IMG/VR virus record: IMGVR_UViG_3300032163_000001
Span: 1-46,248 of that record
DNA from: a virus
Reading direction: 5' to 3' (one strand)
Length of the DNA stretch: 46,248 bases
A model generated the notes under the pieces. It was not told the DNA's origin. It made no database searches and saw only the letters and a program-made list of their open reading frames with translations. Position 1 is the first letter of the stretch; every line of letters begins with the position of its first letter. Positions 6,810 to 40,649 of this stretch are shown here, one piece after another. A program made the translations under genes and the position numbers.

Positions 6810-7510
6810 AATGTGTATATTGTCAAAGAAGTAAAGCAAAATATAAGTTAAAGAATGGAAAATGGTGTTGTTGTAGACACCATAATCAGTGTCCAGCTAG
6901 TAAAGAAATTTTAAGTAACAGTAACAAAGGTAAGAAACATTTGTGGAGTGAGCAAGGAAGAATAAATTTTGCTGAACTAACGAAGATCAGAGTTCCATGG
7001 AATAAAGGAAAAAATTTATCTCAAGAACATTTGGAACACTTATCGAAGAGCCATTTAGGGCAAGTTGCTTGGAATAAAGGAAAGATCGGGGTATACTCTA
7101 AAGAAGTAATAGAAAGTATAAGTGAAAAAGTAAAAGAACTCTGGAAAAATCCAGAATTTGTTAAAAAAATTTATAAATCTCTAGCTCATGGAATGAACAA
7201 GGAAGAAAGTAAAATAAATGAAATTACAGAGAATTTAGATTATAAATATACTGGAGATTTTTCATTTATGATTGGTGGAAAAAGTCCAGACTTTACCAAT
7301 TTTGAGAAAAAGAAAGTAATTGAATTCTTTGGTTCCTGGTATCATGGAGAAGAATACAGGAGAAGAATATATAATGATTTTAAGTCAAATAAAGACCATG
7401 AAATAGAACGAATAGAACACTTTAAAAAATATGGTTTTGATTGTTTAATAATTTGGGGAGACGAACTTAAAAGTAAAGATCTATTAGTACAAAAGATAAA
7501 AAATTTTTAG
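6806..7510 (+). CDS. homing endonuclease-like protein: N-terminal Cys zinc finger, NUMOD3-like repeats, C-terminal PD-(D/E)XK-like domain
   Basis: CVYCQ...GKWCCCRHHNQC cysteine cluster. Repeated WNKGK/SxEHxxK motifs. C-terminal PDFTNF...EFFGSWYHG. The ATGA overlaps the RNR stop. Confidence 0.5.
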   Translation: MKCVYCQRSKAKYKLKNGKWCCCRHHNQCPASKEILSNSNKGKKHLWSEQGRINFAELTKIRVPWNKGKNLSQEHLEHLSKSHLGQVAWNKGKIGVYSKEVIESISEKVKELWKNPEFVKKIYKSLAHGMNKEESKINEITENLDYKYTGDFSFMIGGKSPDFTNFEKKKVIEFFGSWYHGEEYRRRIYNDFKSNKDHEIERIEHFKKYGFDCLIIWGDELKSKDLLVQKIKNF

Positions 7511-7718: not shown

Positions 7719-8117
7719 ATGAAACTAGATAATGAACGAACAGAACTCTTACTGAAAGAGTATGATGAGCAACGAATGGCTCTAAAGAATATGATTAGTG
7801 ATCTTGAGAAAATAAAAGTGAAATTAGATATATTGTTTCCCGAAAGACTTGATGCAAGGTATATAAGACTTTTTGAAGAGAGAATGAAGTCTATATCAGC
7901 TTTATTTCAAATACTTCTTGAGGTTAGAAAAGAGATCTTAAAGAGTGTTAGAGATGAAATTGAGATTAGGAGAAAAGTAGACATTGAAAAAGAACTAGAA
8001 GATTCTCTAGAAAATATTAGAGACCTCGCGAAGAAAGTAGAAAAGTTCCAGAGGGATGAAAAATTACTACTAGAAGAACAAAATAATAGTGAAAAACCAT
8101 TGGAGGTAAGTTCATGA
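7719..8117 (+). CDS. coiled-coil hypothetical protein
   Basis: 132 aa rich in E/K/L heptads with a ribosome-binding site. Confidence 0.4.
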   Translation: MKLDNERTELLLKEYDEQRMALKNMISDLEKIKVKLDILFPERLDARYIRLFEERMKSISALFQILLEVRKEILKSVRDEIEIRRKVDIEKELEDSLENIRDLAKKVEKFQRDEKLLLEEQNNSEKPLEVSS

Positions 8118-9301
8118 CTAATGAAATAGAGAATGATGAACAAGAGAGTCAAGTAAAAGATGATGTGAAAGAAATTTTGGAATCTACAAAAATAGATAAA
8201 AATCGGTTAAGTAATATAGAACCAGTTGATGTAGAAGCAATAAGTAAAGATGATCAAAAAATACAACAACTCTATTCTGAATTCTCTTCGTTTTTAGAAA
8301 CAAGTGCTGACATTATATCTGACAGTGGTGTTAAAACTGTTATCCCAACTGGGATCGATTTATTAGATGCGATCTTAGGTGGAGGTTTAGCTTGTGGTAC
8401 AATGTGTATAATTGTAGGACCTCCTGGTGGTGGTAAAACTATGTTAGCTGCACAAATAGGAGGTTCGATTCAAGTAGAATTTCCAGGGTCTATAGTTGCA
8501 TATTTAGATTCAGAAGAAGCTATTACAACTACTAGATTGTATAACCTTGGTGTAAAAAGACCGAAAATAAAACCATATTCAGATGTTACAGTAGAAAAAG
8601 TATTTAAATTTTTAGAAGGACTTTGTTTATTTAAAGAACAGAAAAAAATAATAGATATACCTTCAATTGTTGTCTGGGATTCGATTGCTAATACTTTGTC
8701 TCAAAAAGAACGAGAAGCTGATGATATTAATAGTGTTATAGGATATAAAGCAAGAATGTTGTCAATTCTAGTTCCAAAGTATGTATCTAAACTTTCGAAA
8801 TATAACATATGTTTAGTAGCTGTGAATCAATTGAGAGATTTGATCCAAATAGGAAATTTTACTCCTGCTAAAGAAATGAAGTTTATGCCTACAGGTAAGG
8901 AAATGCCAGGTGGTAATATCTTGAAATTTAATGCGTTTCAACTCATATATATGAAAATAAATTCTATTTTAGATTCAAAAAAAGAAGGATTTAGCGGAGT
9001 AGTTGTAGAACTAAAGTGTGTAAAAAATAAGTTATTCAGTCCGAATATTCCTATTCAACTTGTTGGCAACTTCTTAATTGGTTTTAGTAATTTTTGGAGT
9101 AACTATAAATTTCTTGTGGAGAATAAAAGACTAAGTAGTGGCGCATGGAACTATCTTATTACTCTCCCAAGTAAAAAGTTTAGAACTCTTGATGCTGAGA
9201 ATTTGTATAAAGATGATCAAGTGTTTAAGCAAACTTTTGATGAAGTTGTAAAAGACACTATACAAAAAGAAATAGTCGATAAGAACGTTGTCCCAGTATA
9301 A
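8114..9301 (+). CDS. RecA/UvsX-family recombinase
   Basis: TGIDLLDAILGGGLACGTMCIIVGPPGGGKTMLAAQ aligns to the RecA Walker A region (TGSLSLDIALGAGGLP.G.IVEIYGPESSGKT). VAYLDSEEA and SIVVWDSIAN match the RecA downstream motifs. Confidence 0.7.
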   Translation: MTNEIENDEQESQVKDDVKEILESTKIDKNRLSNIEPVDVEAISKDDQKIQQLYSEFSSFLETSADIISDSGVKTVIPTGIDLLDAILGGGLACGTMCIIVGPPGGGKTMLAAQIGGSIQVEFPGSIVAYLDSEEAITTTRLYNLGVKRPKIKPYSDVTVEKVFKFLEGLCLFKEQKKIIDIPSIVVWDSIANTLSQKEREADDINSVIGYKARMLSILVPKYVSKLSKYNICLVAVNQLRDLIQIGNFTPAKEMKFMPTGKEMPGGNILKFNAFQLIYMKINSILDSKKEGFSGVVVELKCVKNKLFSPNIPIQLVGNFLIGFSNFWSNYKFLVENKRLSSGAWNYLITLPSKKFRTLDAENLYKDDQVFKQTFDEVVKDTIQKEIVDKNVVPV

Positions 9302-16461: not shown

Positions 16462-17913
16462 GTGATTAAATTTGAACAACTGGGACAAAAGTCGTGGAAG
16501 TTGTGTAATGATGATCAGTGTATAGAAACGCTTGAACTTTCTTCTTCCTCCATCACTAACAAGTTCTCTATTGTTACTTCATTTATTGAGAATGTTTCTA
16601 AAAGTGTTGGAGATGAATTTGACCAGTGGCTAGTTCAATTTTTGAATGTATATAAGATGGCGGATGAGAAGAGATTTTTAGTGGTAGAAGAAAATATACC
16701 TCAGATGAAAAAATTTGTTGACTCTTATATAGATTCTAAAAATGTAAATTTTAGCCAGTTTGTTGATATGAGTAAGGCGAAAAAAACTAGCATCTTGTTT
16801 TATCCAGAAGAAATAGAAAAGATTATTAGATCGTCAAGTTATCTAAAAGTATATTCGTTAGTTTCGAATTCTGAAGGACTTAAATTAGATAGTAGATTGC
16901 ATAAAAAAGTTTATAATAAGTTAGTTTCTGATCTTCTTGAAGCAGACACTGTTTTTAAAGTGTTTAACATTGTTAAAACTAAAACTTTTAGATACAATAT
17001 TTCTGATAAGTATATGTGGGATTATATTAAAATGATACAGTGTAAGTCAATAGACATATATGCTGTAGAGATTTTTAATTTTATAATGAGCAGTATCTTT
17101 ACTTTATGTGATGAAAATAGAAACCCAATTTCTTATTTTATTAGTGTAGTTGATGAATCTGTGAAATGGTTTTTGAGATCAGTATACAAAGGATCTATTA
17201 TTTATGATGATTCAGTGGCTACAGAAGATATTCAAGCGATTCATATAGATAATTTAAGAACGTATACATACAATGATACTATTGGAAGACTAGAAAAAAT
17301 CGCACATGGGAAAATTCATAATGATTTAGAGAGATCAGTTATCTCTACATTTTCTGAAGATAAAGTTGATAAAATCATTCTGGATTTTGAGAAGAGAGTT
17401 TCTAGTGTAGAACATATTTCTCCACTATGTGAATGTTTAACTTTTCCGATTTTATCAATTGTTGCGGGTGTGCCATACGAGCACTTTAAAACTCTAACAC
17501 CAGATCATTGTATTGTTCTTTCAGTTTATCTTCAGTCATTATTGAAGAAAGTTTTTAATGAAGAGTATGAAAGTTTGTTTGATATGTTGAGTTATTTTCC
17601 TGAGAAAGCGTCTGTTGTACATACGACATATAAAATGAAATTATCGAATTTGAAAGATCAATTTCTACCACAGATGAATACTTGTAAATTCTTGAAGTTT
17701 AATGATAAAGTTTATTTACATGAGATTCTATCTTATTTTGTTGGCAGGATTGCTAGAGTAGATTTTATAGATGCTGTTACAGGAAAAGGTTTGGGCGGAA
17801 TTCCTCTTAGTAAAATTGAATCTGATATGATTAAGTTTTACTCTTTGTTCTTCAGTGGAAAATTCGAGAAAGAATTCGAAGAAGTAAAAGTGCTTTTGAA
17901 TAGTGATTTTTGA
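16462..17913 (+). CDS. hypothetical protein immediately upstream of the RNAP genes
   Basis: 483-aa ORF with a GTG start and a perfect AAGGAGG ribosome-binding site. Its stop overlaps the beta-prime reading frame. Confidence 0.45.
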   Translation: MIKFEQLGQKSWKLCNDDQCIETLELSSSSITNKFSIVTSFIENVSKSVGDEFDQWLVQFLNVYKMADEKRFLVVEENIPQMKKFVDSYIDSKNVNFSQFVDMSKAKKTSILFYPEEIEKIIRSSSYLKVYSLVSNSEGLKLDSRLHKKVYNKLVSDLLEADTVFKVFNIVKTKTFRYNISDKYMWDYIKMIQCKSIDIYAVEIFNFIMSSIFTLCDENRNPISYFISVVDESVKWFLRSVYKGSIIYDDSVATEDIQAIHIDNLRTYTYNDTIGRLEKIAHGKIHNDLERSVISTFSEDKVDKIILDFEKRVSSVEHISPLCECLTFPILSIVAGVPYEHFKTLTPDHCIVLSVYLQSLLKKVFNEEYESLFDMLSYFPEKASVVHTTYKMKLSNLKDQFLPQMNTCKFLKFNDKVYLHEILSYFVGRIARVDFIDAVTGKGLGGIPLSKIESDMIKFYSLFFSGKFEKEFEEVKVLLNSDF

Positions 17914-17944
17914 GAACAAATATAAAACTACAAAAGGGATAATA

Positions 17945-20900
17945 ATGTTAAAATTCTTAGATGTAGAAAAATTCTCAAGAAATCTTTTAGCCGTAACTAA
18001 TACAGAAATGTTTACAAGAACTGGCGAGCCGCATACACAGGGACTATTCTCCGAAGCTATTTTTGGATCTATTGGAAGTTTAGATAGGAGACAAAGGTAT
18101 TCTTACATTGATTTAAATATAAAGATAATTCATCCAGAGGCCTATAGAATCCTGATACAATTAGATAGGAAAGTAGAGAAATTCTTTTCCACAGAAAGTT
18201 TGTTCTCTTCAGATAAATCAGGAAAGTTAATTGAGTCTGAAGATGGAATAACTGGCATCTCTGAATTTATTAAGATATTTCCAAAGATTTCTTTTAGAGG
18301 TGAGACTTCGGAAAGAGAGAGACTTATTAAAGTGCTTAAAGAGTCATATACCTCTAATACGTTGTTTGTTTCAAAACTCCCTGTGATACCTCCAGATCTT
18401 AGGCCAGCATATACTGACGCTAAAGGTACTAGAATAATTGATCCTTTGAACGATTTTTATATTAGAATTTTAAGAAGATCTTTTCAAGTTAGAAGTGCTG
18501 GACCAACTGGAATATTTTCTGATCTTATAAGATATGGTTTACAAAAGTCTATTAATGATTGTGATACTTTTGTTAGGACGAAAATTGGAAAGAAAGGTGG
18601 AGTAGTTAGAGATCAATTACTATCTAAAAGAGTAGATTTTTCTGGAAGAGCTGTTATTACACCAAATCCAAACTTAGCAGTTAATCAAATTGGAGTGCCA
18701 TTAAAATTAGCAGTTAGTTTATTTGAGCCATTTTTACTACACGTTTTGTTATATTCAAATAAAATAAATAAGGAAGAACTAGAAAAAGAAATAGAAAACT
18801 TTTTACATACGAGTTTATCAGTAGACTCTGTGAAAAATGTAATGAAGTCGATTAAAGCTGGTCATGAGATTCCATCTAACCTTTATGAAATCTTTTTTAA
18901 TGCTGCTGAAATGGCTATAGCTGGACGTGTTGTTCTAGCAAAAAGAGATCCAGATTTACATCCTGAGTCTATTAGATCATTCTACCCAGTTTTAACAAGA
19001 GGAAACACTTTAGAAATATGTACGTTACAAGTTGGTGGATTTAATGCAGATTTCGATGGTGATGCTATGGGAGTTTTTCATCCACTAACTAATGAAGCAC
19101 AAGGAGAAGCGAAAGAAAAGATGATGAGACCCCAAACTGGGGTAACTTATAATTCTATAGCTTTTGAACTATCGAGAGAAATGTGTGTAGGTTTGTATTT
19201 ACTAACTAAAAGTGTTCGACCCAAGAATTCTCCTATTCATGTTTCTGAAGAAGATCTAGAAAAAGCTACAGATCCTTATATAGCAGTAGTTTATAGAAAT
19301 AAGAATACTACAATGGGAAAAGCTATTGTAAATAGTTGTTTTCCAGAAGCATTTCCATTTATAGATACTTTACTAACTAGAAAAGTAGCTAATGAGTTAA
19401 TAAATTCAGTTCTAGAAAAACATGGAAATAAACAAGGAGAACAAACAGCATCAAAACTCTCTAAAGTAGGATTTAAATTTGCTACTATAATTTCTCCTAC
19501 GTTGAAATTGTCTGATCTAGAAGTTCCAGATGAGATATATAAATTAAAGGAAAAAATGAAAGGAGTTTCAATTGAACAGGCAAATGTGTTGTTAGAAAGA
19601 ATGAGAAAGATAATGGTAGTTTATTTAAAAGATACAGGATTATATAATTTAGTAGAATCTGGTTCTACTAGAGGTTGGGATCAACCAATGCAAATTCTTG
19701 TAGCAAAAGGAATTATTGCTGATCCAAAAGGTAACCTTTTAGAACCAGTGAAAAGTTCATTATCTGATGGACTTACAACTACAGAATTTTTTAGAGCGGC
19801 TGCTGGTTCTAGGAAAGGAATTATTGATAGGGTTATAAATACTTCAGATACAGGATACTTATCTAGAAAGTTAGCTTATTTTTTAAGTCCAGTAGAAATT
19901 GATCCTTTTGTAAAAGATTGTAGAACTAAAAAGACTTTGTCGTTAAAAATAGATGAAGATTTATCTAGAAGACTACATGGAAGATTTATTGAATATGGTG
20001 GAAAACTTGTAGAATTTGATCCAAATCTATTTAGGACTGGTTCGCAGATAGACTTAAGGACTCCAATATATTGTAAGAGTCCAAGAATTTGTCATATATG
20101 TTATGGGAAATTAGTAGAAAGGCATAAAACTCCTTATGTTGGAATACTAGCAGCACAAATTATTGGAGAAAGAGGAACTCAAATTATCATGAGATCTTTT
20201 CATCTAGGAGTTGCTAAAATAGTTGAGAGAAGTATACTTAAAGAAATTGCAGAAAATGAGCCAATGATATCTCTAGATAAACTATCGTCTTATTTAGTCC
20301 AAAGAGATAATAGATTAACAGCTTTAAAGAACTGTAAAGTGATAATTGATATGAATGATTATGATGTTGGTGATAGTATGGTGGTGGAAGAAGATTCTAT
20401 ACAAGTTAAAAGCTTACTAAGTCAAATTGAGTTTGATGATGTAATTTTTTATTTGATTTTAGATTTTCCATGTAACTTGTATGTAGAGAAGAAAGTTGAA
20501 GAAGGTAAAGAGAGAATTGAATTGTTTTATAAAGAGGGTTCTACAATACTAGACGTGCCAACAGAAGTTACAGAAATGAAACAACAAGTTAACTATGTGG
20601 AAAGACTTATTGGTGGAAAAGAAGTGTTTAAAGACGTTGAACATTTATATCGAAAACTATATAAAGTTTACGCGCCTCTGTCTCCAATGGATTCAGTACA
20701 TTTAGAAATTGTAATATCACAGTGTTTAAGATACAGATTAAATCCTGCTTTACCTGCACGATTAGGGAAGACGTGGGATCCAGTATTGATTAATATAAAG
20801 AAGACAATATTTTCTAGCGGATTCATGCAGGGTTTGGCTTTCGAGAACGTGAACGAAGCTATCAAGGTAGGGTTAATTTCTGAGGAAGAGATTCCACCAT

Positions 20901-20947
20901 CAATTATTGAGAAACTAATGACAACTCCGCTTGTGGGAGCTAAATAA
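17945..20947 (+). CDS. multisubunit RNA polymerase beta-prime-like subunit (unsplit)
   Basis: GLFSEAIFGS matches ERDGLFCARIFGP. VSKLPVIPPDLRP matches LPVLPPDLRP. RVDFSGRAVITP matches RVDYSGRSVI. The catalytic NADFDGDAM motif is present. AAAGSRKGIIDRVINTSDTGYLSRKL is bridge-helix-like. AAQIIGERGTQIIMRSFH is trigger-loop-like. The ATG at 17945 (AAGGG ribosome-binding site) is preferred over the GTG at 17903. Confidence 0.85.
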   Translation: MLKFLDVEKFSRNLLAVTNTEMFTRTGEPHTQGLFSEAIFGSIGSLDRRQRYSYIDLNIKIIHPEAYRILIQLDRKVEKFFSTESLFSSDKSGKLIESEDGITGISEFIKIFPKISFRGETSERERLIKVLKESYTSNTLFVSKLPVIPPDLRPAYTDAKGTRIIDPLNDFYIRILRRSFQVRSAGPTGIFSDLIRYGLQKSINDCDTFVRTKIGKKGGVVRDQLLSKRVDFSGRAVITPNPNLAVNQIGVPLKLAVSLFEPFLLHVLLYSNKINKEELEKEIENFLHTSLSVDSVKNVMKSIKAGHEIPSNLYEIFFNAAEMAIAGRVVLAKRDPDLHPESIRSFYPVLTRGNTLEICTLQVGGFNADFDGDAMGVFHPLTNEAQGEAKEKMMRPQTGVTYNSIAFELSREMCVGLYLLTKSVRPKNSPIHVSEEDLEKATDPYIAVVYRNKNTTMGKAIVNSCFPEAFPFIDTLLTRKVANELINSVLEKHGNKQGEQTASKLSKVGFKFATIISPTLKLSDLEVPDEIYKLKEKMKGVSIEQANVLLERMRKIMVVYLKDTGLYNLVESGSTRGWDQPMQILVAKGIIADPKGNLLEPVKSSLSDGLTTTEFFRAAAGSRKGIIDRVINTSDTGYLSRKLAYFLSPVEIDPFVKDCRTKKTLSLKIDEDLSRRLHGRFIEYGGKLVEFDPNLFRTGSQIDLRTPIYCKSPRICHICYGKLVERHKTPYVGILAAQIIGERGTQIIMRSFHLGVAKIVERSILKEIAENEPMISLDKLSSYLVQRDNRLTALKNCKVIIDMNDYDVGDSMVVEEDSIQVKSLLSQIEFDDVIFYLILDFPCNLYVEKKVEEGKERIELFYKEGSTILDVPTEVTEMKQQVNYVERLIGGKEVFKDVEHLYRKLYKVYAPLSPMDSVHLEIVISQCLRYRLNPALPARLGKTWDPVLINIKKTIFSSGFMQGLAFENVNEAIKVGLISEEEIPPSIIEKLMTTPLVGAK

Positions 20948-21552
20948 TGATTATCTATAAAGCTGAGAATAAAGTTAATGGTAAGGTTTATATTGGTCAA
21001 ACTATTAAGAACATTGATAAAAGAATTTCTGAACATTTAAAATCTGAATATAGTTGTGGTATTGTTTTTCGAAATGCTCTTAAAAAATATGGAATTCAGT
21101 CTTTTGAAATTTCTATTATAGATAAAGGAGAATCTAGAGAAGAACTTAATGAGAAAGAAAAATATTGGATTAAGTTTTATAATTGTAAAGTCCCAGATGG
21201 TTATAATTTGACCAATGGAGGAAATGGAATTATTGGATATATCTTTACTCCAGAGGTTAGAAAGAAAATTGGTGATTCTATTAGAGGAAAGAAAAATCCA
21301 ATTCATTCAGAATGGATGAAAAAGAATAATCCAAATAAGAAACTAGAAGTTAGAGAAAAAATGGGTAGTCCTGGAAAAAGTAATGGAAGATTTGGTAAGC
21401 ACTGGTCCGAAGAAGAAAGAAAGATGATTAGTGAAAAGACAAAACAAGGTATGAAAAATTCAAGAGCTGCGGAGAAAATAAGTAAAAAATGTAAAGGAAG
21501 AATTCCTTGGAATAAGAAACTAATAGAGGCTAACAATGGCAATAAGGTTTGA
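20947..21552 (+). CDS. GIY-YIG homing endonuclease (copy 1)
   Basis: IYKAENKVNGKVYIGQT (GIY...YIG), KYG, EKYWIKFYN...GYNLTNGG. It overlaps both the beta-prime stop (TAATG) and the beta start. Confidence 0.7.
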   Translation: MIIYKAENKVNGKVYIGQTIKNIDKRISEHLKSEYSCGIVFRNALKKYGIQSFEISIIDKGESREELNEKEKYWIKFYNCKVPDGYNLTNGGNGIIGYIFTPEVRKKIGDSIRGKKNPIHSEWMKKNNPNKKLEVREKMGSPGKSNGRFGKHWSEEERKMISEKTKQGMKNSRAAEKISKKCKGRIPWNKKLIEANNGNKV

Positions 21553-24500
21553 AAAATTTCGACTTAATACACAAACTACTGACTCATTACGTTTCGTCTT
21601 AACAGATCAGAATATAGATCGTCCATACGCACTCGTCTACTTCTCTGAAAACTCTACTTTTATTGAAGACTATCCAAAGCTAAATCTTAGACCAGTAGAT
21701 TTTAGAATTGTCCTTGTCCCCTGGTCTATTCTTCCGAAATCTTCATTAACTAAAGATATGAGAGATGAGTATAAGAAACTTGGTTTACTTGCATATTCTA
21801 GTCGATTAAAAAATATGCCAAAAAGAAGAAATATTATAATTGATATTTCTGAATATATCGCAGCGATTGATAAATATCTAAAACCCATTAATTATAGACT
21901 GCGGGCTGGAAGGTATATTATTAGTCTTTTAAAATCAGTAGCTTTTAACTGGTCTAAGGATTATGAACTAGTTTTTGTTTACTCTATAGATATCAACAAA
22001 CCTATCTTTAAAATTATTGATAGAAGAGTATTTCCGATTGTTCGAAATGTAAGAGATGAAGAGTTTCCATTTAAACATTTTATTTTATCTACTATTGGTG
22101 CATCAAGTGTAAGATATCGTCTTTTGATGAAAAATGGAAGTTTCAATTACGCATTTTTGTGGCAGTATATAAAAGCTATTACACAATCTCATAGACCTGA
22201 GATAGAAGACCATGAAACAGTTGATATTCCGAAAGTTGATAAAGACGATGATCCAGAAATAGAGTCAGCTTCACAAGATATAGTAAAACATGTAGAACCA
22301 CATGTTGACAAAAAAAATGTTCAAAAATTCAAATCTTCTATTTCTTCTTTTTTAAAGAAAGATAATAAATCACTGGATAGAGTTATTTCTAAAGAAGTTA
22401 CTCCAGAAGAAAAACAAAAGATTGCTATCGCTTCAATCCTATATAAAAGTACAGGAGACTTACAGAGAGCTAAAAGTATAGCGAAATATATTCCAACAAA
22501 AGATGTTCTTAAAGCTTTGGTAAATGTTGATAAGAAGTATGCAGATGAACTTTTACCGCGAGTTCCAACTCTTTCTACATCAGAACACCCTATAGTTAAA
22601 CTTGTTGATATTCCAGAAATTGTAGAGAAAAAAGTTCCTACTCATATTATAAGTAAGAGACAAATAGATTTTCATGAAAACTTGAAGAAAGATGTTATTT
22701 CTTCGTTCTCTACTCTTGCTAAGAAGAAAGAAGGAGCAGTAAGACTTGAGAAACTTGAAATAGAAGATAAACCAGAGAAAAGGGGAGAAGTAGAGAAGAC
22801 TGATTTAGCAACTCTAAAAGTTGTTCTAAAAGACGAATTTGGGAATGTACATAAAATTGTAATTGACATTCCTAAGATAGATCAATTTGGAACGTTTAGA
22901 GTTAATGGAATAAGACAGTGCCTTTTAAACCAAATAATTTTTTGTCCAATTACGTTTCCAAAAAGGTATGATTCAAGGTTTGAAAGTTTTTACTCACAGT
23001 TTCATATTAAAAGTAAAAGAGTTAGAGAACCATACTATTTAGAAATCTATATGGGTGGAAATATTATTCCATTACTAATTTGTTTAGGTTATGGTTTTGG
23101 ATTTGATAACGTTCTAAAAGACTATGGAATTTCTTACAAAGTTGTAGATAAAAAATCTAAGGAAGAATTTTCTAGTAAAGTAAACGAAGACAAATATATT
23201 ATATTTGAAAAGGTTGATAATGAACTTAAACAAGAATTATGTACTTCTTTTATCAAGGCAAAAGTTTGGAAATATAAAATTGATAAAGAATTTCCTAGTA
23301 GAGAATACTTCAATGATTTAATCATTAAACTAACAGGAAGAATAAATTCTACATATATGATTCAAACTAACATAGAAAATATTATAGATCCAGTAACTAA
23401 ACAAGTTTTATTGAATAAAGGTCAACCAGTAACACTAGATCAAGTTATGAGATATATGGCTTCTAAAGTAGTTACTGGTTATATAGAAGATTTGAATGAC
23501 CTTTCTTCAAGAAGAATAAGAAGTTCTGAAGTTTTAGTTCATTTACTTCAGGAACAAATAGAAGCTGCTTATACTGTTTATAGATCTCAAATTCTTTCTG
23601 GAAATAAGAGCGCTAAACTAGAGATTTCTCCAATTGCACTTATGAAAAAATTTAAACAACAAGAAATAGTTGTTAATATGGAATACTCGAATCCACTAGA
23701 AGAACTAGCTACTTTAACTAAAATTAGTCCAATAGGAAAATCAATAAGCGGTATACCAGGGAGAGAATCTGTACAAGTTAGTGCTAGAGATATTAACGAT
23801 TCGTTTTTTGGTAACATAGATCCTTTAGATACACCTGAAGGGGAAATGGTTGGGATAGTGCAGTATCTTACAGTTGATGCTAATATAACTACAAGTAGAG
23901 GTTTGTTTTTTAAGAAGTCTCTGGATGATAAAGAAAAGTCTGGAATACTTTCAACATCTAGTTCAATGATTCCATTTATTGAAAGAAATGATGGTGCTAG
24001 AGTTTTGATGGCTGATGGTCACTCAAAACAAGCTTTGCCTTTAAAGAACCCGGAATCTCCAATAGTACAATCAGGTTATGAATCAGTTCTCACAAGGTCT
24101 TTATCTGACAACTTTTTAAAACCATCTCCGTGTGATGGAGTTGTCCAGAATATTACAAATGATAGTATTACGATAGAATGTAAAGATGGAGAAAAAGAAA
24201 GTGTTGATATTACACCAAGGTATCTAAGATCTGGAACTGGGAAAGATACTTTAAGTGTTTTTAATGTTAAAGTTGAAAAGAATCAGAAAGTTAGAAAAAA
24301 TCAAATACTTGCAGAAGGTGCGTGTATTTCTAATGGTATGATTTCTTTAGGAAGAACTTTGTGTGTTGCGATAATGAATTATAAAGGATATAATTTTGAA
24401 GATGGAATAGTAGTTAGTGAAAAACTGATAAGTGAAGAAAAATTGACATCTCTGCATGGAGAAGAGATTGATGTATGGGTTTCTGAGAAAGATAGAATTT

Positions 24501-25690
24501 TGTTTGTAAATTCAATTGGGACTGTTACTGAAAGAGGAGATGCTCTTTTAAGAAAGACTAGAGGTGAGATAGAAGAACTTCTTGGTTATACTGAAGAAGT
24601 TGAAGATGAATCAGTTTATATATCAGGCCGAGAATTTATGAAGAAAAGTCCAGGTGGTGTAATTGTAGATATTGAAGTATTTACGAATGTTAAATCAGAA
24701 AGATTTCCATTACTTAAAGATTTAATTGAAAGAACTTCTAGAAAATATAGAAAACCTTCTGCTGATCCATTTACAATTAAAGGAGAAAGGATAAATGGAG
24801 TTTTAGTTCGATTTAGAGTAGAGCAAGAACTAAAGATAACTCTAGGAGATAAGATTTGTAATAGATATGGAAATAAAGGAATTATTTCTTTAATAGAAAA
24901 ATCTGAGTATATGCCTAGAACTCCATGGGGAGAAGAGGTTGATATTATATTGAACCCTCTTGGTTTAGTAAGTAGGATGAATATTGGTCAGTTATTTGAA
25001 ATATATTGTGGACTTATCTCTAAAGCTTTAGCTATAAAAATTGTAGAAAGTAATGACCAAAATAGAGCTGTAGAAGGTTTAAGAAGAACTCTCCCACTTC
25101 TAGATGGAACAACTAAAAAAATATATAGTAGTAGTTTAATACAAAGTATATCTAGACTTACAAAAGCAGATTTTTCTAGACTTATAGATAGTATTACGAA
25201 AACGAAGTTCTTTCCAATTATAATACCTCCATTTCAATCACCTAAACTACAAGATATTAAGAAATGCTTAAAAGCTTTGGGTTTAGATGATGGATATCAT
25301 TTGACATTACCAGAGTTCGCGACTAAAACTTCTGAGAAAGTCCCAGTGGGGTATATGTATATTTACAAGTTAGAACATCTTGGAGAGTTAAAGATTTACG
25401 GTCGTTCTACAGGGATTGTTTCTGGCAAAGTTATGCAACCTGTTTCTGGAAGAAGGTTAGAAGGAGGACAAAAGATAGGAGAAAATGATACCTATTCATT
25501 ATTCTCATATAATTGTCCAATTTTGTTAAGTGAACTCTTTGGGCCATTGTCGGATGATCATACTACAAAGAATGAGATCATTTCTGATATAATTCATACT
25601 GGTGGAGCTAAGTATAGAGAAGCGAAAGTTTCGCCGGTTAAAGATCTCTTGAACGCCTATCTCGTATCTCTTATGTTAGCTCCGAAGTGA
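21536..25690 (+). CDS. multisubunit RNA polymerase beta-like subunit with a roughly 440-aa N-terminal extension
   Basis: QFGTFRVNGIRQ matches GTFVINGTERV. DPLDTPEGEMVG matches PIETPEGPNIG. RNDGARVLMADGHSKQA matches ANDANRALMGANMQRQA. GDKICNRYGNKGIISLI...VDIILNPLGLVSRMNIGQLFE matches GDKMAGRHGNKGVIS...VDIVLNPLGVPSRMNIGQ. Confidence 0.85.
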   Translation: MAIRFEKFRLNTQTTDSLRFVLTDQNIDRPYALVYFSENSTFIEDYPKLNLRPVDFRIVLVPWSILPKSSLTKDMRDEYKKLGLLAYSSRLKNMPKRRNIIIDISEYIAAIDKYLKPINYRLRAGRYIISLLKSVAFNWSKDYELVFVYSIDINKPIFKIIDRRVFPIVRNVRDEEFPFKHFILSTIGASSVRYRLLMKNGSFNYAFLWQYIKAITQSHRPEIEDHETVDIPKVDKDDDPEIESASQDIVKHVEPHVDKKNVQKFKSSISSFLKKDNKSLDRVISKEVTPEEKQKIAIASILYKSTGDLQRAKSIAKYIPTKDVLKALVNVDKKYADELLPRVPTLSTSEHPIVKLVDIPEIVEKKVPTHIISKRQIDFHENLKKDVISSFSTLAKKKEGAVRLEKLEIEDKPEKRGEVEKTDLATLKVVLKDEFGNVHKIVIDIPKIDQFGTFRVNGIRQCLLNQIIFCPITFPKRYDSRFESFYSQFHIKSKRVREPYYLEIYMGGNIIPLLICLGYGFGFDNVLKDYGISYKVVDKKSKEEFSSKVNEDKYIIFEKVDNELKQELCTSFIKAKVWKYKIDKEFPSREYFNDLIIKLTGRINSTYMIQTNIENIIDPVTKQVLLNKGQPVTLDQVMRYMASKVVTGYIEDLNDLSSRRIRSSEVLVHLLQEQIEAAYTVYRSQILSGNKSAKLEISPIALMKKFKQQEIVVNMEYSNPLEELATLTKISPIGKSISGIPGRESVQVSARDINDSFFGNIDPLDTPEGEMVGIVQYLTVDANITTSRGLFFKKSLDDKEKSGILSTSSSMIPFIERNDGARVLMADGHSKQALPLKNPESPIVQSGYESVLTRSLSDNFLKPSPCDGVVQNITNDSITIECKDGEKESVDITPRYLRSGTGKDTLSVFNVKVEKNQKVRKNQILAEGACISNGMISLGRTLCVAIMNYKGYNFEDGIVVSEKLISEEKLTSLHGEEIDVWVSEKDRILFVNSIGTVTERGDALLRKTRGEIEELLGYTEEVEDESVYISGREFMKKSPGGVIVDIEVFTNVKSERFPLLKDLIERTSRKYRKPSADPFTIKGERINGVLVRFRVEQELKITLGDKICNRYGNKGIISLIEKSEYMPRTPWGEEVDIILNPLGLVSRMNIGQLFEIYCGLISKALAIKIVESNDQNRAVEGLRRTLPLLDGTTKKIYSSSLIQSISRLTKADFSRLIDSITKTKFFPIIIPPFQSPKLQDIKKCLKALGLDDGYHLTLPEFATKTSEKVPVGYMYIYKLEHLGELKIYGRSTGIVSGKVMQPVSGRRLEGGQKIGENDTYSLFSYNCPILLSELFGPLSDDHTTKNEIISDIIHTGGAKYREAKVSPVKDLLNAYLVSLMLAPK

Positions 25691-25703
25691 TAAGGAAGAA
25701 TAG

Positions 25704-26378
25704 ATGATTATTTATAAAGCTGAGAATAAAGTTAATGGAAAGATTTATGTTGGTGAAACATTACATAAATTAGAAACTAGAATTCATGACCATTTTAGGA
25801 TGGGAGGATCACCCGTTTTCTATAATGCTCTTAAGAAATATGGAATTCAAAATTTTAGTATCTTAGTAATAGATACAGCTAAATCTATAAAAGAACTTAA
25901 TGAAAAAGAGAAGTACTGGATCAAATTCTATAATTGTAAAGTTCCAAATGGATATAATTTGACTGATGGTGGAGATGGAATCACTGGATATATTCATACT
26001 CCGGAAGCAAGAAAGAAGATAAGTGAAAAATTGAAGGGAAGAAAAAGAGAATATATGGTAGGAGATAACAATCCAATGAAAAGACCAGAAGTCAGAAAGA
26101 AAGTTAGTAATTCGCAGAAAGTCTATATGAGTAAACCAGAGGCAAAACAAAAAGTTAGTGAAAAATTAAGAAATAGAAAATTTTTAGATGAACATAAAGA
26201 AAAATTGAGAAGACCTAGATCACAAGAATCAAAGAAAAGAATGAGTGAATCAAGAAGAGGAAAAGTTCCTTGGAATAAAGGTTTAACAAAAGAAACTGAC
26301 GAAAGAGTTAAAAAATATTGTGATTTAAATAAGAACAGATATCAGTTAAATGAAATAAAAATTTTAGCACCAAAATAG
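25704..26378 (+). CDS. GIY-YIG homing endonuclease (copy 2)
   Basis: IYKAENKVNGKIYVGET, KYGIQNF, EKYWIKFYNCKVPNGYNLTDGG. The first 40 nt are nearly identical to copy 1. Confidence 0.7.
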   Translation: MIIYKAENKVNGKIYVGETLHKLETRIHDHFRMGGSPVFYNALKKYGIQNFSILVIDTAKSIKELNEKEKYWIKFYNCKVPNGYNLTDGGDGITGYIHTPEARKKISEKLKGRKREYMVGDNNPMKRPEVRKKVSNSQKVYMSKPEAKQKVSEKLRNRKFLDEHKEKLRRPRSQESKKRMSESRRGKVPWNKGLTKETDERVKKYCDLNKNRYQLNEIKILAPK

Positions 26379-26386
26379 GAGAAACA

Positions 26387-26980
26387 ATGGATCCAGAGAA
26401 AATTCTTTTAGGATCTTCATTTCCATTGTATGAAATCGAAGAGGATTTCGACAGAGACGTTGAGAAAGAAGCGTCTTTAAAATATGATCTTTTGAATATA
26501 GTAAATTCTGTTGGAACTGACGACTTTAAAGATTGTTATTTAATGTCGATCAATTCTATAAAAGATAGTTCAATAGATATTCAACAAGTTTTTTGTAATG
26601 AACTACTGGAAAAAGTTAGAGAAATATATGATTATGAGTTTCCAGTTAAACTAGATTTTAGCGAAAGTACCATCCTAGATTTCTATAAATTTATGGAATT
26701 TGTAGAGTTTGACTACCTTGATTTTTTATCGAAGTTGTGGAGGATTATGAGTCAAGATTTAAAGAGTTTACATGTAGTTGATTTTTGTAGATCTAGCTCT
26801 TTCGAAATAGTTAAGGAGGTTGACGATATAGTAGAAACAAGTTCTTTTCCAAAGTTAGTTTCTATTTTCTGCAGAACATATACAAAAGATAATTTGGTTG
26901 AATTTATTATTAAAAAGACTGTTAGAGATAGAATGTTGATAGTTTTAGAAATCAAGGAAGGAGAAGAGAAAAATGGATAA
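26387..26980 (+). CDS. acidic hypothetical protein
   Basis: 197 aa, Asp/Glu-rich, with a ribosome-binding site. Confidence 0.45.
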   Translation: MDPEKILLGSSFPLYEIEEDFDRDVEKEASLKYDLLNIVNSVGTDDFKDCYLMSINSIKDSSIDIQQVFCNELLEKVREIYDYEFPVKLDFSESTILDFYKFMEFVEFDYLDFLSKLWRIMSQDLKSLHVVDFCRSSSFEIVKEVDDIVETSSFPKLVSIFCRTYTKDNLVEFIIKKTVRDRMLIVLEIKEGEEKNG

Positions 26981-39566: not shown

Positions 39567-40649
39567 TTGCCAAAGAGATTAGTTAATAAAAAATTTCTGC
39601 AGGAACAAGCTATTAAATTATATACGGAAGAATTTCTTAGTTTAAATCAAGTAGCAGAAGTTCTTAATATTAGTCAAAGACAAGTTTTTAGATTCGTAAA
39701 AGGTAAAACTAGAAGTATAGTAGAATCTAGAAGGATAACTTCAAAAGTCAAAAATTTAGATTTCTTTGATAATATAGATTCAGAAGAAAAAGCATATTTT
39801 CTTGGACTTATATATTCAGATGGTTGCTTACATGAAAATCGTGGAGTTACTATATCATTAGAAATAACGGATAAACATTTAATAGAGAAATTTTCTTCAA
39901 TTTTTAACTCAAATATCACATATGAAACAACAAGTAATGGATCAATCCATTGTCAAACTAGTATTTGGTCAGTCTACATAACTAGATCATTAGAAAAAGT
40001 AGGAATATATCCAAGGAAAAGTTCTTTGAAGGATGTAGATATTCTTAATAATTTACCAAAACATTTACTTAGACATTTTATTAGAGGTTTTTTAGATGGA
40101 GATGGATGTATATATGAAAGTAGAAAAGATACATATGGAGTTACTTTGAGTGGAAATAACGAAAATTTTATATTTAAATTAGCTGAAGAGATTAAAGATA
40201 ACTGTGATTTTAACTACCTTAGAATTTCAAAGAATTGTAAATGCAATTGTAGATCAATTACAATTCATGGAAATCTTAAATCGAAAGTTTTTCTTGACTG
40301 GTTATACAAAGATTCTAGTATATTCATGTACAGAAAAAAAGCTATTTATGAAAAAATAGTAGTCCAAGTAAATAACAAGAAATTTACTGGAGTTAGGTTC
40401 GATAAAAGAAATGGAAAATTTCGAGCTGTATTAGGTTACGAAGGGAAAAGAACATATTCAAAGTTTTGTATAAGTGAACAACAAGCTGCTGAACTCTATG
40501 ATAAAATGGCTACTAAACAAAATTATGAAAGATATCAACTAAATTTTCCAGAAAGATATGAGGAGTACTTAAAGAAAATAATACCAATATACTCCAAGGA
40601 GAAGGGAGGTCCCCATGCCACTCTGGAAATGCACCAAGTGTCACCATGA
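39567..40649 (+). CDS. LAGLIDADG homing endonuclease with an N-terminal HTH and a C-terminal AP2-like DNA-binding domain
   Basis: Two LAGLIDADG-type motifs, YFLGLIYSDGCL and FIRGFLDGDGCI. N-terminal LNQVAEVLNISQRQVFRFV is HTH-like. C-terminal GVRFDKRNGKFRAVLGYEGKRTYSKFCISEQQAAELYDK follows the AP2 pattern. TTG start with an AAGGAGG ribosome-binding site. Confidence 0.65.
   Translation: MPKRLVNKKFLQEQAIKLYTEEFLSLNQVAEVLNISQRQVFRFVKGKTRSIVESRRITSKVKNLDFFDNIDSEEKAYFLGLIYSDGCLHENRGVTISLEITDKHLIEKFSSIFNSNITYETTSNGSIHCQTSIWSVYITRSLEKVGIYPRKSSLKDVDILNNLPKHLLRHFIRGFLDGDGCIYESRKDTYGVTLSGNNENFIFKLAEEIKDNCDFNYLRISKNCKCNCRSITIHGNLKSKVFLDWLYKDSSIFMYRKKAIYEKIVVQVNNKKFTGVRFDKRNGKFRAVLGYEGKRTYSKFCISEQQAAELYDKMATKQNYERYQLNFPERYEEYLKKIIPIYSKEKGGPHATLEMHQVSP

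Follow-up and report, generated by a model that had tools for sequence, protein, structure and literature searches.

The seg and mob genes of phage T4 are inserted between genes, often as promoter-less cassettes, and distant cleavage sites and co-conversion have been described for them (PMC2988022). Gp210 of phage PhiPA3 is an intron-encoded HNH endonuclease that targets the virion RNA polymerase gene of PhiKZ (PMC11620839). In fungal mitochondria, endonuclease ORFs carry a replacement 3' end of the upstream gene, as described for atp6 of Allomyces and for atp6, atp9, cox2 and nad3 of Glomus; the duplicated gene end lies downstream of the ORF, and most differences between the two ends are synonymous (PMC3630166).

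Here, two GIY-YIG genes (copy 1 and copy 2) at the two ends of the RNA polymerase beta gene of an uncultivated large phage were investigated. The window, i.e. the whole stretch of DNA that was analysed, comprises 46,248 nucleotides (IMG/VR record IMGVR_UViG_3300032163_000001, positions 1 to 46,248). The features of the locus are as follows:

17903..20947, + strand: RNA polymerase beta' gene, 1014 aa, intact (Pfam Rpb1 domains 1, 2, 3 and 5; NADFDGD motif in the translation)
20753..20932, + strand: beta' tail with aberrant synonymous codon usage, last ~60 codons, directly upstream of copy 1 (GC3 0.45-0.50)
20947..21552, + strand: copy 1, GIY-YIG homing endonuclease gene, 201 aa (Pfam GIY-YIG, PHROG 314, I-TevI alignment)
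20947..20997, + strand: 5' direct repeat, copy 1 arm (47/51 identical to 25704-25754; exact core of 26 nt)
21536..25690, + strand: RNA polymerase beta gene, 1384 aa, intact, between copy 1 and copy 2 (Pfam Rpb2_6, E 2.5e-48; Rpb2_3)
25673..25690, + strand: end of beta, last five codons and stop (M L A P K *); the last four residues recur at the end of copy 2
25704..26378, + strand: copy 2, GIY-YIG homing endonuclease gene, 224 aa (Pfam GIY-YIG and NUMOD3, PHROG 314, structural model)
25704..25754, + strand: 5' direct repeat, copy 2 arm (pairs with 20947-20997)
26361..26386, + strand: end of copy 2 (I L A P K *) and 8-nt spacer, possibly what is left of the original 3' end of beta and the spacer between beta and the next gene
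26387..26980, + strand: conserved 197-aa gene, directly 3' of beta in relatives (homologue 9-41 nt after beta in L007-L014)

The sequence-only reading of this DNA had placed copy 1 between beta' and beta with start/stop overlaps on both sides and copy 2 directly after beta, and the coordinates bear this out. The ATG of copy 1 has one base in common with the beta' stop codon (TAATG) and its last 17 nt overlap beta, whose ATG is at 21536. Copy 2 starts 13 nt after the beta stop and ends 8 nt before the next gene at 26387. At both sites the flanking conserved genes are intact, and each nuclease ORF lies between genes and not within one. Neither reading frame is in frame with the host genes, both copies are co-oriented with beta' and beta, and the spacers that they occupy are very short. 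The RNA polymerase that the phage itself encodes is of the two-subunit type. A Shine-Dalgarno-like GGGAG motif is located within the last beta' codons upstream of the copy 1 start, and copy 1 is probably translated from it; an AGGAAG motif was observed 7 nt upstream of the copy 2 start. A scan for terminators and for promoters of the sigma-70 type showed no enrichment over shuffles; on this promoter model, which may not fit the phage, copy 1 and copy 2 appear to have no recognisable promoter of their own. Many homologues are named group I intron-encoded endonucleases by JGI. This name was rejected here, since no Rfam intron family matched anywhere in the window and every relative has beta' and beta as two distinct genes, each complete.

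Both proteins matched the Pfam GIY-YIG domain (copy 1, E 6e-12; copy 2, E 7e-9) and PHROG 314, 'homing endonuclease' (E 3.5e-34 and 1.5e-33, respectively), and they were 50% identical to each other overall (E 3e-60) and 67% in the catalytic domain, as expected from the initial description of the two as paralogous GIY-YIG endonucleases. In copy 1, the catalytic domain spans residues ~1-92 and is followed by a NUMOD3-type C-terminal region. NUMOD3 was matched by two stretches of copy 2 (E 1.8e-8), while the copy 1 match was just below the Pfam cut-off (E 1.4e-3). A separate C-terminal DNA-binding module is thus predicted for both copies. Copy 1 aligned to the catalytic domain of I-TevI with an E-value of 5e-7. 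Residues Y6, Y17, R27, H31, E75 and N90 of I-TevI correspond to Y4, Y15, R26, H30, E71 and N87 of copy 1 and to Y4, Y15, R26, H30, E69 and N85 of copy 2. The GIY and YIG motifs take the form IIY (Y4) and VYIG or IYVG (Y15). The catalytic arginine and glutamate, whose absence would have spoken against the endonuclease assignment, are therefore present in both copies, and they align to the positions mutated in 1LN0 (R27A) and 1MK0 (E75A). Across a family alignment of 38 members, Y4, Y15, E69 and N85 were invariant and R26 and H30 were at least 90% conserved. Both copies are predicted to be active nucleases.

The AlphaFold model of copy 2 had a pLDDT of 86.6, with values of 88-98 for residues 1-100, and a helical C-terminal region. 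The best PDB matches of its N-terminal domain were the I-TevI structures 1MK0 and 1LN0 (TM 0.73-0.76, rmsd 2.1-2.3 A). The model, which covers copy 2 only, thus predicts the GIY-YIG alpha/beta fold.

The closest relatives belong to three lineages represented by eight contigs (L007-L014), which are fully syntenic with this locus. Beta and beta' align to their counterparts over the full length, with 62-65% and 70-71% identity, respectively. In these eight contigs the beta'/beta spacer measures 9-62 nt and the beta/next-gene spacer 9-41 nt, and neither contains an insertion. Further, none of the 47 non-redundant loci of this large-phage clade carried a related GIY-YIG gene at either junction. The expected relatives without the insertions hence exist, and identical insertions in all relatives, which would have contradicted the sequence-only reading, were not found in them. 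The two sites appear polymorphic for presence and absence among related genomes that are 62-65% identical or less in beta. As the nearest relatives are no closer than this, the empty sites record gain or loss of the genes after lineages had parted long ago, rather than variation present today in one population. Megablast returned no closely related DNA from cultured phages, whose RNA polymerases are only ~25% identical to the one encoded here. An assignment of the clade to the 'moraphage' phages described in 2025 (PMC12619734) was rejected, because those phages have no RNA polymerase genes.

Taken together, copy 1 and copy 2 are very probably free-standing genes for GIY-YIG homing endonucleases from a single large family carried by phages, and they were inserted intergenically around beta. 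They belong to this family with their catalytic residues intact, they are placed precisely between genes, and they are absent from all known relatives; the absence of a related GIY-YIG gene from the closest relatives and the wider clade is what marks them as inserted. The T4 seg-like signature of intergenic homing that had been proposed for the locus, with paralogous free-standing genes at both ends of beta and relatives devoid of them, was thereby upheld. By analogy with the seg genes, homing and the location of the targets would be as follows. In a cell co-infected by a relative that lacks the nuclease gene, the enzyme would cut that relative's DNA at a conserved site within or close to the adjoining polymerase genes. 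The break would be repaired by recombination with the endonuclease-carrying genome as template, and the rival would thereby receive the endonuclease gene together with polymerase sequence from its flanks. The carrier itself would escape cleavage because its target sequence differs. A RecA/UvsX-like protein of the phage is encoded at 8114-9301.

The flanks of the insertions were inspected in the upstream genes. Beta and copy 2 both end in LAPK*, encoded by different codons, and they are the only pair among 832 pairs of adjacent ORFs, over all loci, to have their last four residues in common. The tails of the two proteins aligned weakly (p=0.04). A nucleotide-level test of a duplicated end was not significant (p=0.45), so that the support is that of the positional protein test. 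The junction between copy 2 and the next gene, TAG|GAGAAACA|ATG, resembles the beta/next-gene junction of the relatives, TAG|GAGTATTAA|ATG. The end of copy 2 and the spacer behind it may possibly be a remnant of the native beta 3' end and its spacer, and the recurrence of LAPK* hints at a co-converted or recoded flank. The idea that copy 1 likewise terminates in a leftover of the beta' 3' end was rejected: the tails do not align (p=0.70) and the beta' tails of the clade are unlike the copy 1 tail. A 10-nt match between the two ends, AGAAACTAAT (p=0.015), is unsupported at the protein level.

The tail of beta' stands out by its codon usage. By GC3, the top 3 of the 1082 40-codon windows of the whole stretch (mean 0.186, sd 0.07) all lie in it, and for the GC3 excess of the beta' tail this phage ranks 1 of 51 clade members. 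At codons common to L007 and L009, this phage differs at 16/26 in the beta' tail and at 141/398 in the rest of the gene (p=0.011); unlike the beta' tail, the beta tail showed no significant excess of synonymous differences (p=0.55). Genes with a junction insertion of any kind behind them did not in general have a raised GC3 at their 3' end (Mann-Whitney p=0.39 and 0.52). Best-hit identity did not discriminate between a foreign and a native origin of the beta' or beta tail, as the degree of conservation of the tails is much the same throughout the clade. For the beta tail, the similarity to distant relatives is greater than that to close ones, which is explained equally well by a retained ancestral state. 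We regard the beta' tail as a candidate recoded target or co-conversion tract, at the level of a hint; if recoded, it would offer a concrete guess of where one of the enzymes cuts. An extension of this idea, which we hold to be quite improbable, is that both nuclease genes and beta form one composite selfish cassette, in which each nuclease travels with a recoded or replaced 3' end of its upstream gene (the GC3-rich beta' tail and the LAPK* end of beta) that makes the carrier immune. Cleavage on either side would then drive the whole beta allele into rival phages, and the cassette would correspond, in a phage and at an essential polymerase gene, to the fungal mitochondrial elements that join an endonuclease ORF to a replacement gene end.

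The 5' ends of the copies form direct repeats, as had been noted for their first ~40 nt at a distance of ~4.75 kb. The first 51 nt are identical at 47 positions with an exact run of 26 nt, and the start-to-start spacing is 4757 nt. That the two genes as such are homologous is certain. The further claim of ongoing gene conversion did not hold up. Among identical residues, identical codons were used at 12/14 positions in the first 17 codons and at 54/86 elsewhere (Fisher p=0.13), 54% of the codons would be expected to match from codon bias alone, and an unrelated family member from another genome (L094) has 44/45 of the same 5' bases. As the 5' nucleotide identity does not exceed the amino-acid expectation, there is no evidence for ongoing conversion, and recent conversion of the 5' ends was rejected as well, codon bias explaining most of the likeness. 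The repeat appears to be a by-product of the family-wide motif MIIYKAxNKxNGKIY and an AT-rich codon bias. Loss of beta by recombination between the copies is no more than a theoretical possibility.

Several other explanations of the arrangement were weighed. The metagenomic origin of the assembly and the exact 26-nt repeat could suggest a chimeric contig joined at the common 5' 26-mer, but we give this practically no credence. All four flanks are collinear with the gene order of the relatives (beta', beta, 197-aa gene). Each ORF is complete, and the two diverge from end to end. A wrong join at the repeat would have removed or doubled beta and not yielded the order seen here. That the genes are ancestral to the clade and were deleted from all sampled relatives is very improbable. 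It is true that genes for homing endonucleases are gained, decay and are lost in turn, and that the relatives are only distantly related. However, precise deletion would be needed at both sites in all 47 loci, it would have to leave tidy spacers of ~9-12 nt (up to 62 nt) or start/stop overlaps, and tblastn detected no decayed GIY-YIG remnant at either junction in the relatives.

The origin of the two copies relative to each other is a separate matter. The 185.6-kb source contig encodes four members of the GIY-YIG family, and two of the four bracket the same gene, which is unlikely under random placement and would fit an intragenomic duplication or transposition of one copy across beta. Copy 1, copy 2 and P0002, a homologue at a non-polymerase site of a different phage, also form one small group in 26% of bootstrap replicates. 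We nevertheless consider duplication unlikely and infer independent acquisition: the divergence between the copies is large, copy 2 is closer to P0002 (75% identical) than to copy 1, and copy 1 and copy 2 are sisters in only 9% of 300 replicates of a poorly resolved tree. A further reading, which we regard as rather unlikely, is that the nucleases are kept mainly as weapons that cripple the polymerase genes of co-infecting phages, rather than as purely selfish elements. In the PhiPA3/PhiKZ pair an endonuclease aimed at a large-phage RNA polymerase gene does confer a competitive advantage (PMC11620839); here both genes adjoin polymerase genes, they are intact with conserved catalytic residues, and the genome keeps four such genes. 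Yet such a use is compatible with homing and not an alternative to it, and the family is scattered over many unrelated loci, as selfish elements would be. Close homologues in other phages sit between unrelated conserved genes (DnaB, baseplate and others), and one lies on a contig with SbcCD-like genes further downstream.

Intergenic homing as the preferred reading makes this arrangement a clear but ordinary case of a well-known kind of mobile element, and it leaves the current understanding of homing endonucleases unchanged. It adds a clean instance, computationally well documented, in which genes for free-standing homing endonucleases have settled in the RNA polymerase module of a lineage of uncultivated large phages, and it bears on gene flow and competition among large phages. 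In the clade survey this module was a recurrent landing place for selfish and accessory DNA, with inteins in beta' and beta, DUF7487-type and HNH nuclease ORFs and metabolic 'moron' genes, and with breaks or insertions recurring at beta' residue ~792. Enzymes of the copy 1 and copy 2 type could serve as long-target nucleases.

Of the systems compared, the fungal mitochondrial elements also place an ORF at the 3' end of a conserved gene, and their synonymously diverged ends have a parallel in the LAPK* ends with different codons and the odd synonymous usage of the upstream flanks. The duplicated stretch is at most 5 codons here, on the basis of 1/832 ORF pairs and the weak tail alignment (p=0.04), and the copy 1 junction is without such a remnant. 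PhiPA3 gp210 is likewise a homing-type nuclease tied to the gene for an essential RNA polymerase subunit in a large phage, but it is an HNH nickase encoded in an intron within the gene, in another phage lineage with split polymerase subunits. I-TevI, the endonuclease of the T4 td intron, is the closest solved structure. Its catalytic domain aligns over ~90 residues and is also followed by NUMOD3-type motifs; it differs in being encoded in a group I intron, and its DNA-binding region consists of a zinc finger and a helix-turn-helix instead of a run of NUMOD3-like helices. T4 SegA-SegG, like the two copies, join a GIY-YIG catalytic domain to a separate DNA-binding region. The seg genes also occupy short intergenic sites between conserved genes, often promoter-less within an operon, and relatives are without them; they are expected to cut the neighbouring conserved gene and to be copied together with flanking sequence (PMC2988022), and the same would be expected here. 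The copies nonetheless belong to a different sequence lineage, with a GIY-YIG endonuclease of Bacillus phage Izhevsk as the best cultured-phage match (41%). In contrast to T4, the nucleases are known here from sequence, they are carried by an uncultivated large phage that encodes a multisubunit RNA polymerase of its own, they adjoin the genes for this polymerase, and two paralogues bracket a single gene.

The window was phage-like, with a G+C content of ∼30% and every gene on the + strand. It encoded a baseplate-hub (injector) OB-domain protein (+ strand, Phage_base_V), a RecA/UvsX-like protein, ribonucleotide reductase, topoisomerase II subunits and a multisubunit-type RNA polymerase in two genes, beta' and beta. 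A GIY-YIG ORF was located at each end of the beta gene.

RNA polymerase genes and adjacent ORFs in the window
17903-20947, + strand: beta' gene, 1014 aa, Pfam Rpb1 domains, NADFDGD motif
20947-21552, + strand: copy 1, 201-aa GIY-YIG ORF between beta' and beta
21536-25690, + strand: beta gene, 1384 aa, Rpb2 domains 3 and 6
25704-26378, + strand: copy 2, 224-aa GIY-YIG ORF, starting 13 nt past the beta stop and stopping 8 nt before the next gene
26387-26980, + strand: conserved 197-aa gene

The ATG of copy 1 shares one base with the beta' stop codon (TAATG) and its final 17 nt overlap the beta start. When the junctions were rechecked, the coordinates and overlaps given for both ORFs in the sequence-only reading were found to be correct. 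The first 2900 nt of the window differed in composition (G+C 0.43-0.46 vs ∼0.30 in the remainder) and may have been acquired recently or form a compositional island; the genes in this part include a Phage_cement_2-like protein (weak match) and a CBM96/disaggregatase-repeat protein.

Both ORFs matched Pfam GIY-YIG (E = 6e-12 for copy 1, 7e-9 for copy 2), followed in each by NUMOD3 motifs, and PHROG 314 'homing endonuclease' (E = 3.5e-34 and 1.5e-33, respectively); the two proteins shared 50% identity (E = 3e-60). Each copy could be aligned with the solved I-TevI catalytic domain over ∼90 residues (E = 5e-7 for copy 1, 4e-4 for copy 2). Residues Y6, Y17, R27, H31, E75 and N90 of I-TevI corresponded to Y4, Y15, R26, H30, E71 and N87 of copy 1 and to Y4, Y15, R26, H30, E69 and N85 of copy 2. 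All the GIY-YIG catalytic positions, a point that the sequence-only reading had left for alignment to decide, are therefore kept in both copies, and they were invariant or at least 90% conserved in a 38-member alignment of the family. The AlphaFold model of copy 2 (mean pLDDT 86.6) had the I-TevI catalytic domain as its sole significant PDB matches (TM 0.73-0.76, rmsd 2.1-2.3 Å). Many homologues bear the automatic name 'group I intron endonuclease'. An Rfam search of the window detected no group I intron and no other Rfam family, so this identity was ruled out and the two copies are free-standing genes, not intron-borne.

To place the two ORFs, the junctions were compared with those of relatives. 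About 75 beta homologues of this phage lineage were present in the protein database (43-65% identity), many on contigs of 150-312 kb. The three closest lineages comprised eight contigs with beta 62-65% identical, and beta' was 70-71% identical in the two of them with a full-length beta'. The closest relatives had the gene order of the window over more than 20 kb. In these relatives the spacer between beta' and beta measures 9-12 nt, with one of 62 nt, and that between beta and the counterpart of the 197-aa gene 9 nt, with one of 41 nt. A beta-profile scan of IMG/VR yielded 47 non-redundant clade loci, none of which (0/47) carried a GIY-YIG gene related to copies 1 and 2 at either junction. As the coding flanks are conserved up to the insertion points (beta' tail ...SIIEKLMTxxLV... 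and beta N-terminus MAIRFE... as in relatives) and the empty spacers of relatives are short, each insertion is a block of ∼0.6-0.7 kb that fits exactly into a spacer no longer than a few dozen bases. That both copies were ancestral and then lost from all relatives is very unlikely, because many exact deletions would have been needed and no decayed GIY-YIG remnants were detected at the junctions of relatives. The expectation that relatives without the insertions exist thus held, and the core reading, homing endonuclease genes inserted on either side of beta, was borne out by the domains, the catalytic residues and the empty sites.

The near-identical 5' ends of the two copies had also been taken as a sign of ongoing gene conversion. 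The repeat itself stood (47 of the opening 51 nt identical, including a 26-nt exact run, at a spacing of 4757 nt); the conversion did not. The repeat codes for MIIYKAENKVNGK[VI]Y, the GIY motif region, which is nearly invariant across the whole family. At residues common to both copies, identical codons were used at 12/14 positions in the first 17 codons vs 54/86 in the rest (Fisher p = 0.13), and codon bias of the genome alone predicted 54%. A 26-mer scan of metagenome contigs gave one match, a family member in unrelated context (contig L094), whose opening 45 nt were identical to copy 2 at 44/45 positions. Exchange between the copies was rejected as the cause of the repeat, given that codon identity was not significantly higher there and that L094 carries the same opening. 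Because of the near-invariant motif, the codon bias and the L094 match, the repeat is a family trait and gives no evidence that exchange between the copies is ongoing. Catalytic-domain identity was 67% between the two copies and 75% between copy 2 and P0002, a protein from a non-polymerase site of another phage; of 300 bootstrap replicates, 9% had the two copies as sisters and 46% grouped copy 2 with P0002. By these comparisons the copies do not clearly appear to be each other's closest relatives, and independent acquisition is favoured. Recombination between the repeats, which would delete beta and leave a dead genome, is a formal possibility only.

With copy 1 as the query, 1386 homologues were recovered. 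The 185.6 kb source contig carries four family members, two in the window and two elsewhere (P0004 and P0019); in the alignment P0004 has no R-x3-H stretch, and it falls with P0020 into a different subfamily. The nearest homologues in other phages sit between unrelated genes, one of them near a phosphatase-like gene, and often close to other nuclease-type ORFs; their contigs also carry glycosyltransferase, SbcCD-like, DnaB-like and baseplate genes. The best cultured-phage match was the GIY-YIG endonuclease of Bacillus phage Izhevsk (41%), and hundreds of hits are annotated as Seg-like or I-TevI-like. Spread in this way, the family acts like a mobile element: its distribution is as described for the T4 seg and mob genes, which are intergenic, often promoter-less cassettes within existing operons (PMC2988022). 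The L094 member (2071-2150, Ga0315295_10174454) follows unrelated small phage ORFs. L094 and the endonuclease-less relative L008 come from one metagenome (3300032156), so the family and a naive target lineage co-occur in one sample.

T4 seg and mob endonucleases cleave in the neighbouring conserved gene of relatives lacking the endonuclease, and flanking sequence is co-converted (PMC2988022). Directly upstream of copy 1, the final ∼60 codons of beta' (20753-20932) had a GC3 of 0.45-0.50; the window mean was 0.186 (sd 0.07, 1082 windows of 40 codons), and the three highest values were those of this tail. Its excess over the gene average (0.25) ranked 1/51 among clade members, the next being 0.13, and the anomaly is specific to the window genome. 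For the conserved core GFxQGLAFENVN, the codons common to the closest relatives are GGT TTA GCT TTT GAR AAT GTW AAY, and those of the window GGT TTG GCT TTC GAG AAC GTG AAC; in the 20825-20845 region the window reads GGTTTGGCTTTCGAGAACGTG vs GGTTTAGCTTTTGARAATGT in relatives. At conserved residues where relatives L007 and L009 agree on the codon, the window differed at 16/26 in the tail vs 141/398 elsewhere in beta' (p = 0.011). Upstream of copy 2, the 3' end of the beta gene had a GC3 excess of 0.16 (rank 1/54), and the codon-difference test there was not significant (p = 0.55). The downstream flanks were unremarkable (ranks 5/47 and 4/34), the endonuclease genes themselves had an ordinary GC3 of 0.19, and no comparable effect was found at loci with other kinds of insertion. 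The beta' tail could be the target of the enzyme, synonymously recoded and thereby protecting the carrier; a co-converted tract that evolved together with the endonuclease gene and a repair-associated bias are other possible readings. Nearly all codons in the genome end in A or T, so almost any synonymous change raises GC3. The recoded tail is a candidate target, and we count it as a lead, not a finding.

At the other insertion, beta ends in ...MLAPK* and copy 2 in ...ILAPK*, with different codons. Among all loci examined this was the only one of 832 pairs of adjacent ORFs to share the last four residues. The junction past copy 2, TAG GAGAAACA ATG, resembles the beta/next-gene junction of relatives, TAG GAGTATTAA ATG. 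The shared ending is reminiscent of fungal mitochondrial endonuclease ORFs, which supply the gene upstream of them with a replacement 3' end, its native end coming to lie beyond the ORF (PMC3630166). The duplicated stretch is five codons long; the protein alignment of the tails gave p = 0.04, the nucleotide alignment of the two ends was not significant, and nothing comparable was found at the copy 1 junction. A replacement gene end is thus a thin lead, not a finding.

Across the clade, the polymerase module is a landing zone for insertions.

Insertions in the polymerase module of relatives
L003 9662-10000 and L004 9648-10001: cupin-domain gene, 112-117 aa (Cupin_2, E = 1e-11), beta'/beta spacer of two distant relatives
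L001 9270-9321, L002 3012-4147, L015, L019, L021, L025, L027, L029, L037, L049 and L063: beta' breaks
L002 beta', residue ∼764: in-frame LAGLIDADG intein, ∼378 aa
L002 9032-10720, L033 8701-9687 and L020 2863-3933: DUF7487 (Pfam) ORFs at or inside polymerase genes

The beta'/beta junction was empty in ∼38/47 loci; the others hold a cupin gene, an M48 peptidase with a staphylococcal-type nuclease, an SNF2 helicase or a weak HNH ORF. In ∼12 loci the beta/next-gene junction contained DUF7487-type nuclease-like ORFs, an ORF with four NUMOD3 motifs, or NAPRTase, NUDIX or SUKH genes. The spacers therefore take accessory genes besides nucleases. The beta' gene was interrupted at residue ∼792 (window protein numbering) in eleven clade loci surveyed: two were split into two ORFs, eight had unknown-function ORFs or other DNA in between, and one had the intein. 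One beta homologue contained a LAGLIDADG domain. DUF7487 may mark another homing-type nuclease family. The DUF7487 ORF of L020 lies at beta' residue ∼386, and one of the DUF7487 ORFs combines this domain with an MTES_1575 nuclease domain plus a C2H2 zinc finger.

Two further homing-endonuclease-like genes were present in the window.

6806-7510, + strand: 234-aa ORF overlapping the stop of the ribonucleotide reductase large-subunit gene (ATGA)
39567-40649, + strand: 360-aa ORF, LAGLIDADG_3 and AP2 domains, PHROG 4645 'endonuclease' (E = 6e-53)

The first has a Cys-rich N-terminus and two WNKGK NUMOD3-like motifs (Pfam NUMOD3, E = 1.5e-3), and matched no PHROG. By eye, its C-terminal stretch IEFFGSWYHGEE... 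resembles the DUF559/MTES_1575 nuclease domain found beside NUMOD3 in ORFs of loci L005 and L006, and the ORF is probably a third free-standing homing endonuclease gene of the window. The second is located in the region between both topoisomerase II subunit genes and brings the homing-endonuclease-like genes of the window to four. The large subunit of ribonucleotide reductase itself (4596-6809, + strand) shows an unusual N-terminal fusion, as its residues 11-109 matched a LigD 3'-phosphoesterase domain (E = 4e-8).

The comparison adds a clean set of empty sites for copies 1 and 2, a view in which the polymerase module is a hot spot for insertions, and a testable candidate target in the recoded beta' tail. 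The genes are of a kind already known. All the defining features of the T4 seg type that are open to computation were found in both copies, which match these free-standing GIY-YIG homing endonucleases in anatomy and in predicted mechanism, cleavage and homing. PhiPA3 gp210 is likewise associated with the RNA polymerase genes of a large phage, but it is an intron-borne HNH nickase (PMC11620839) and belongs to another lineage.
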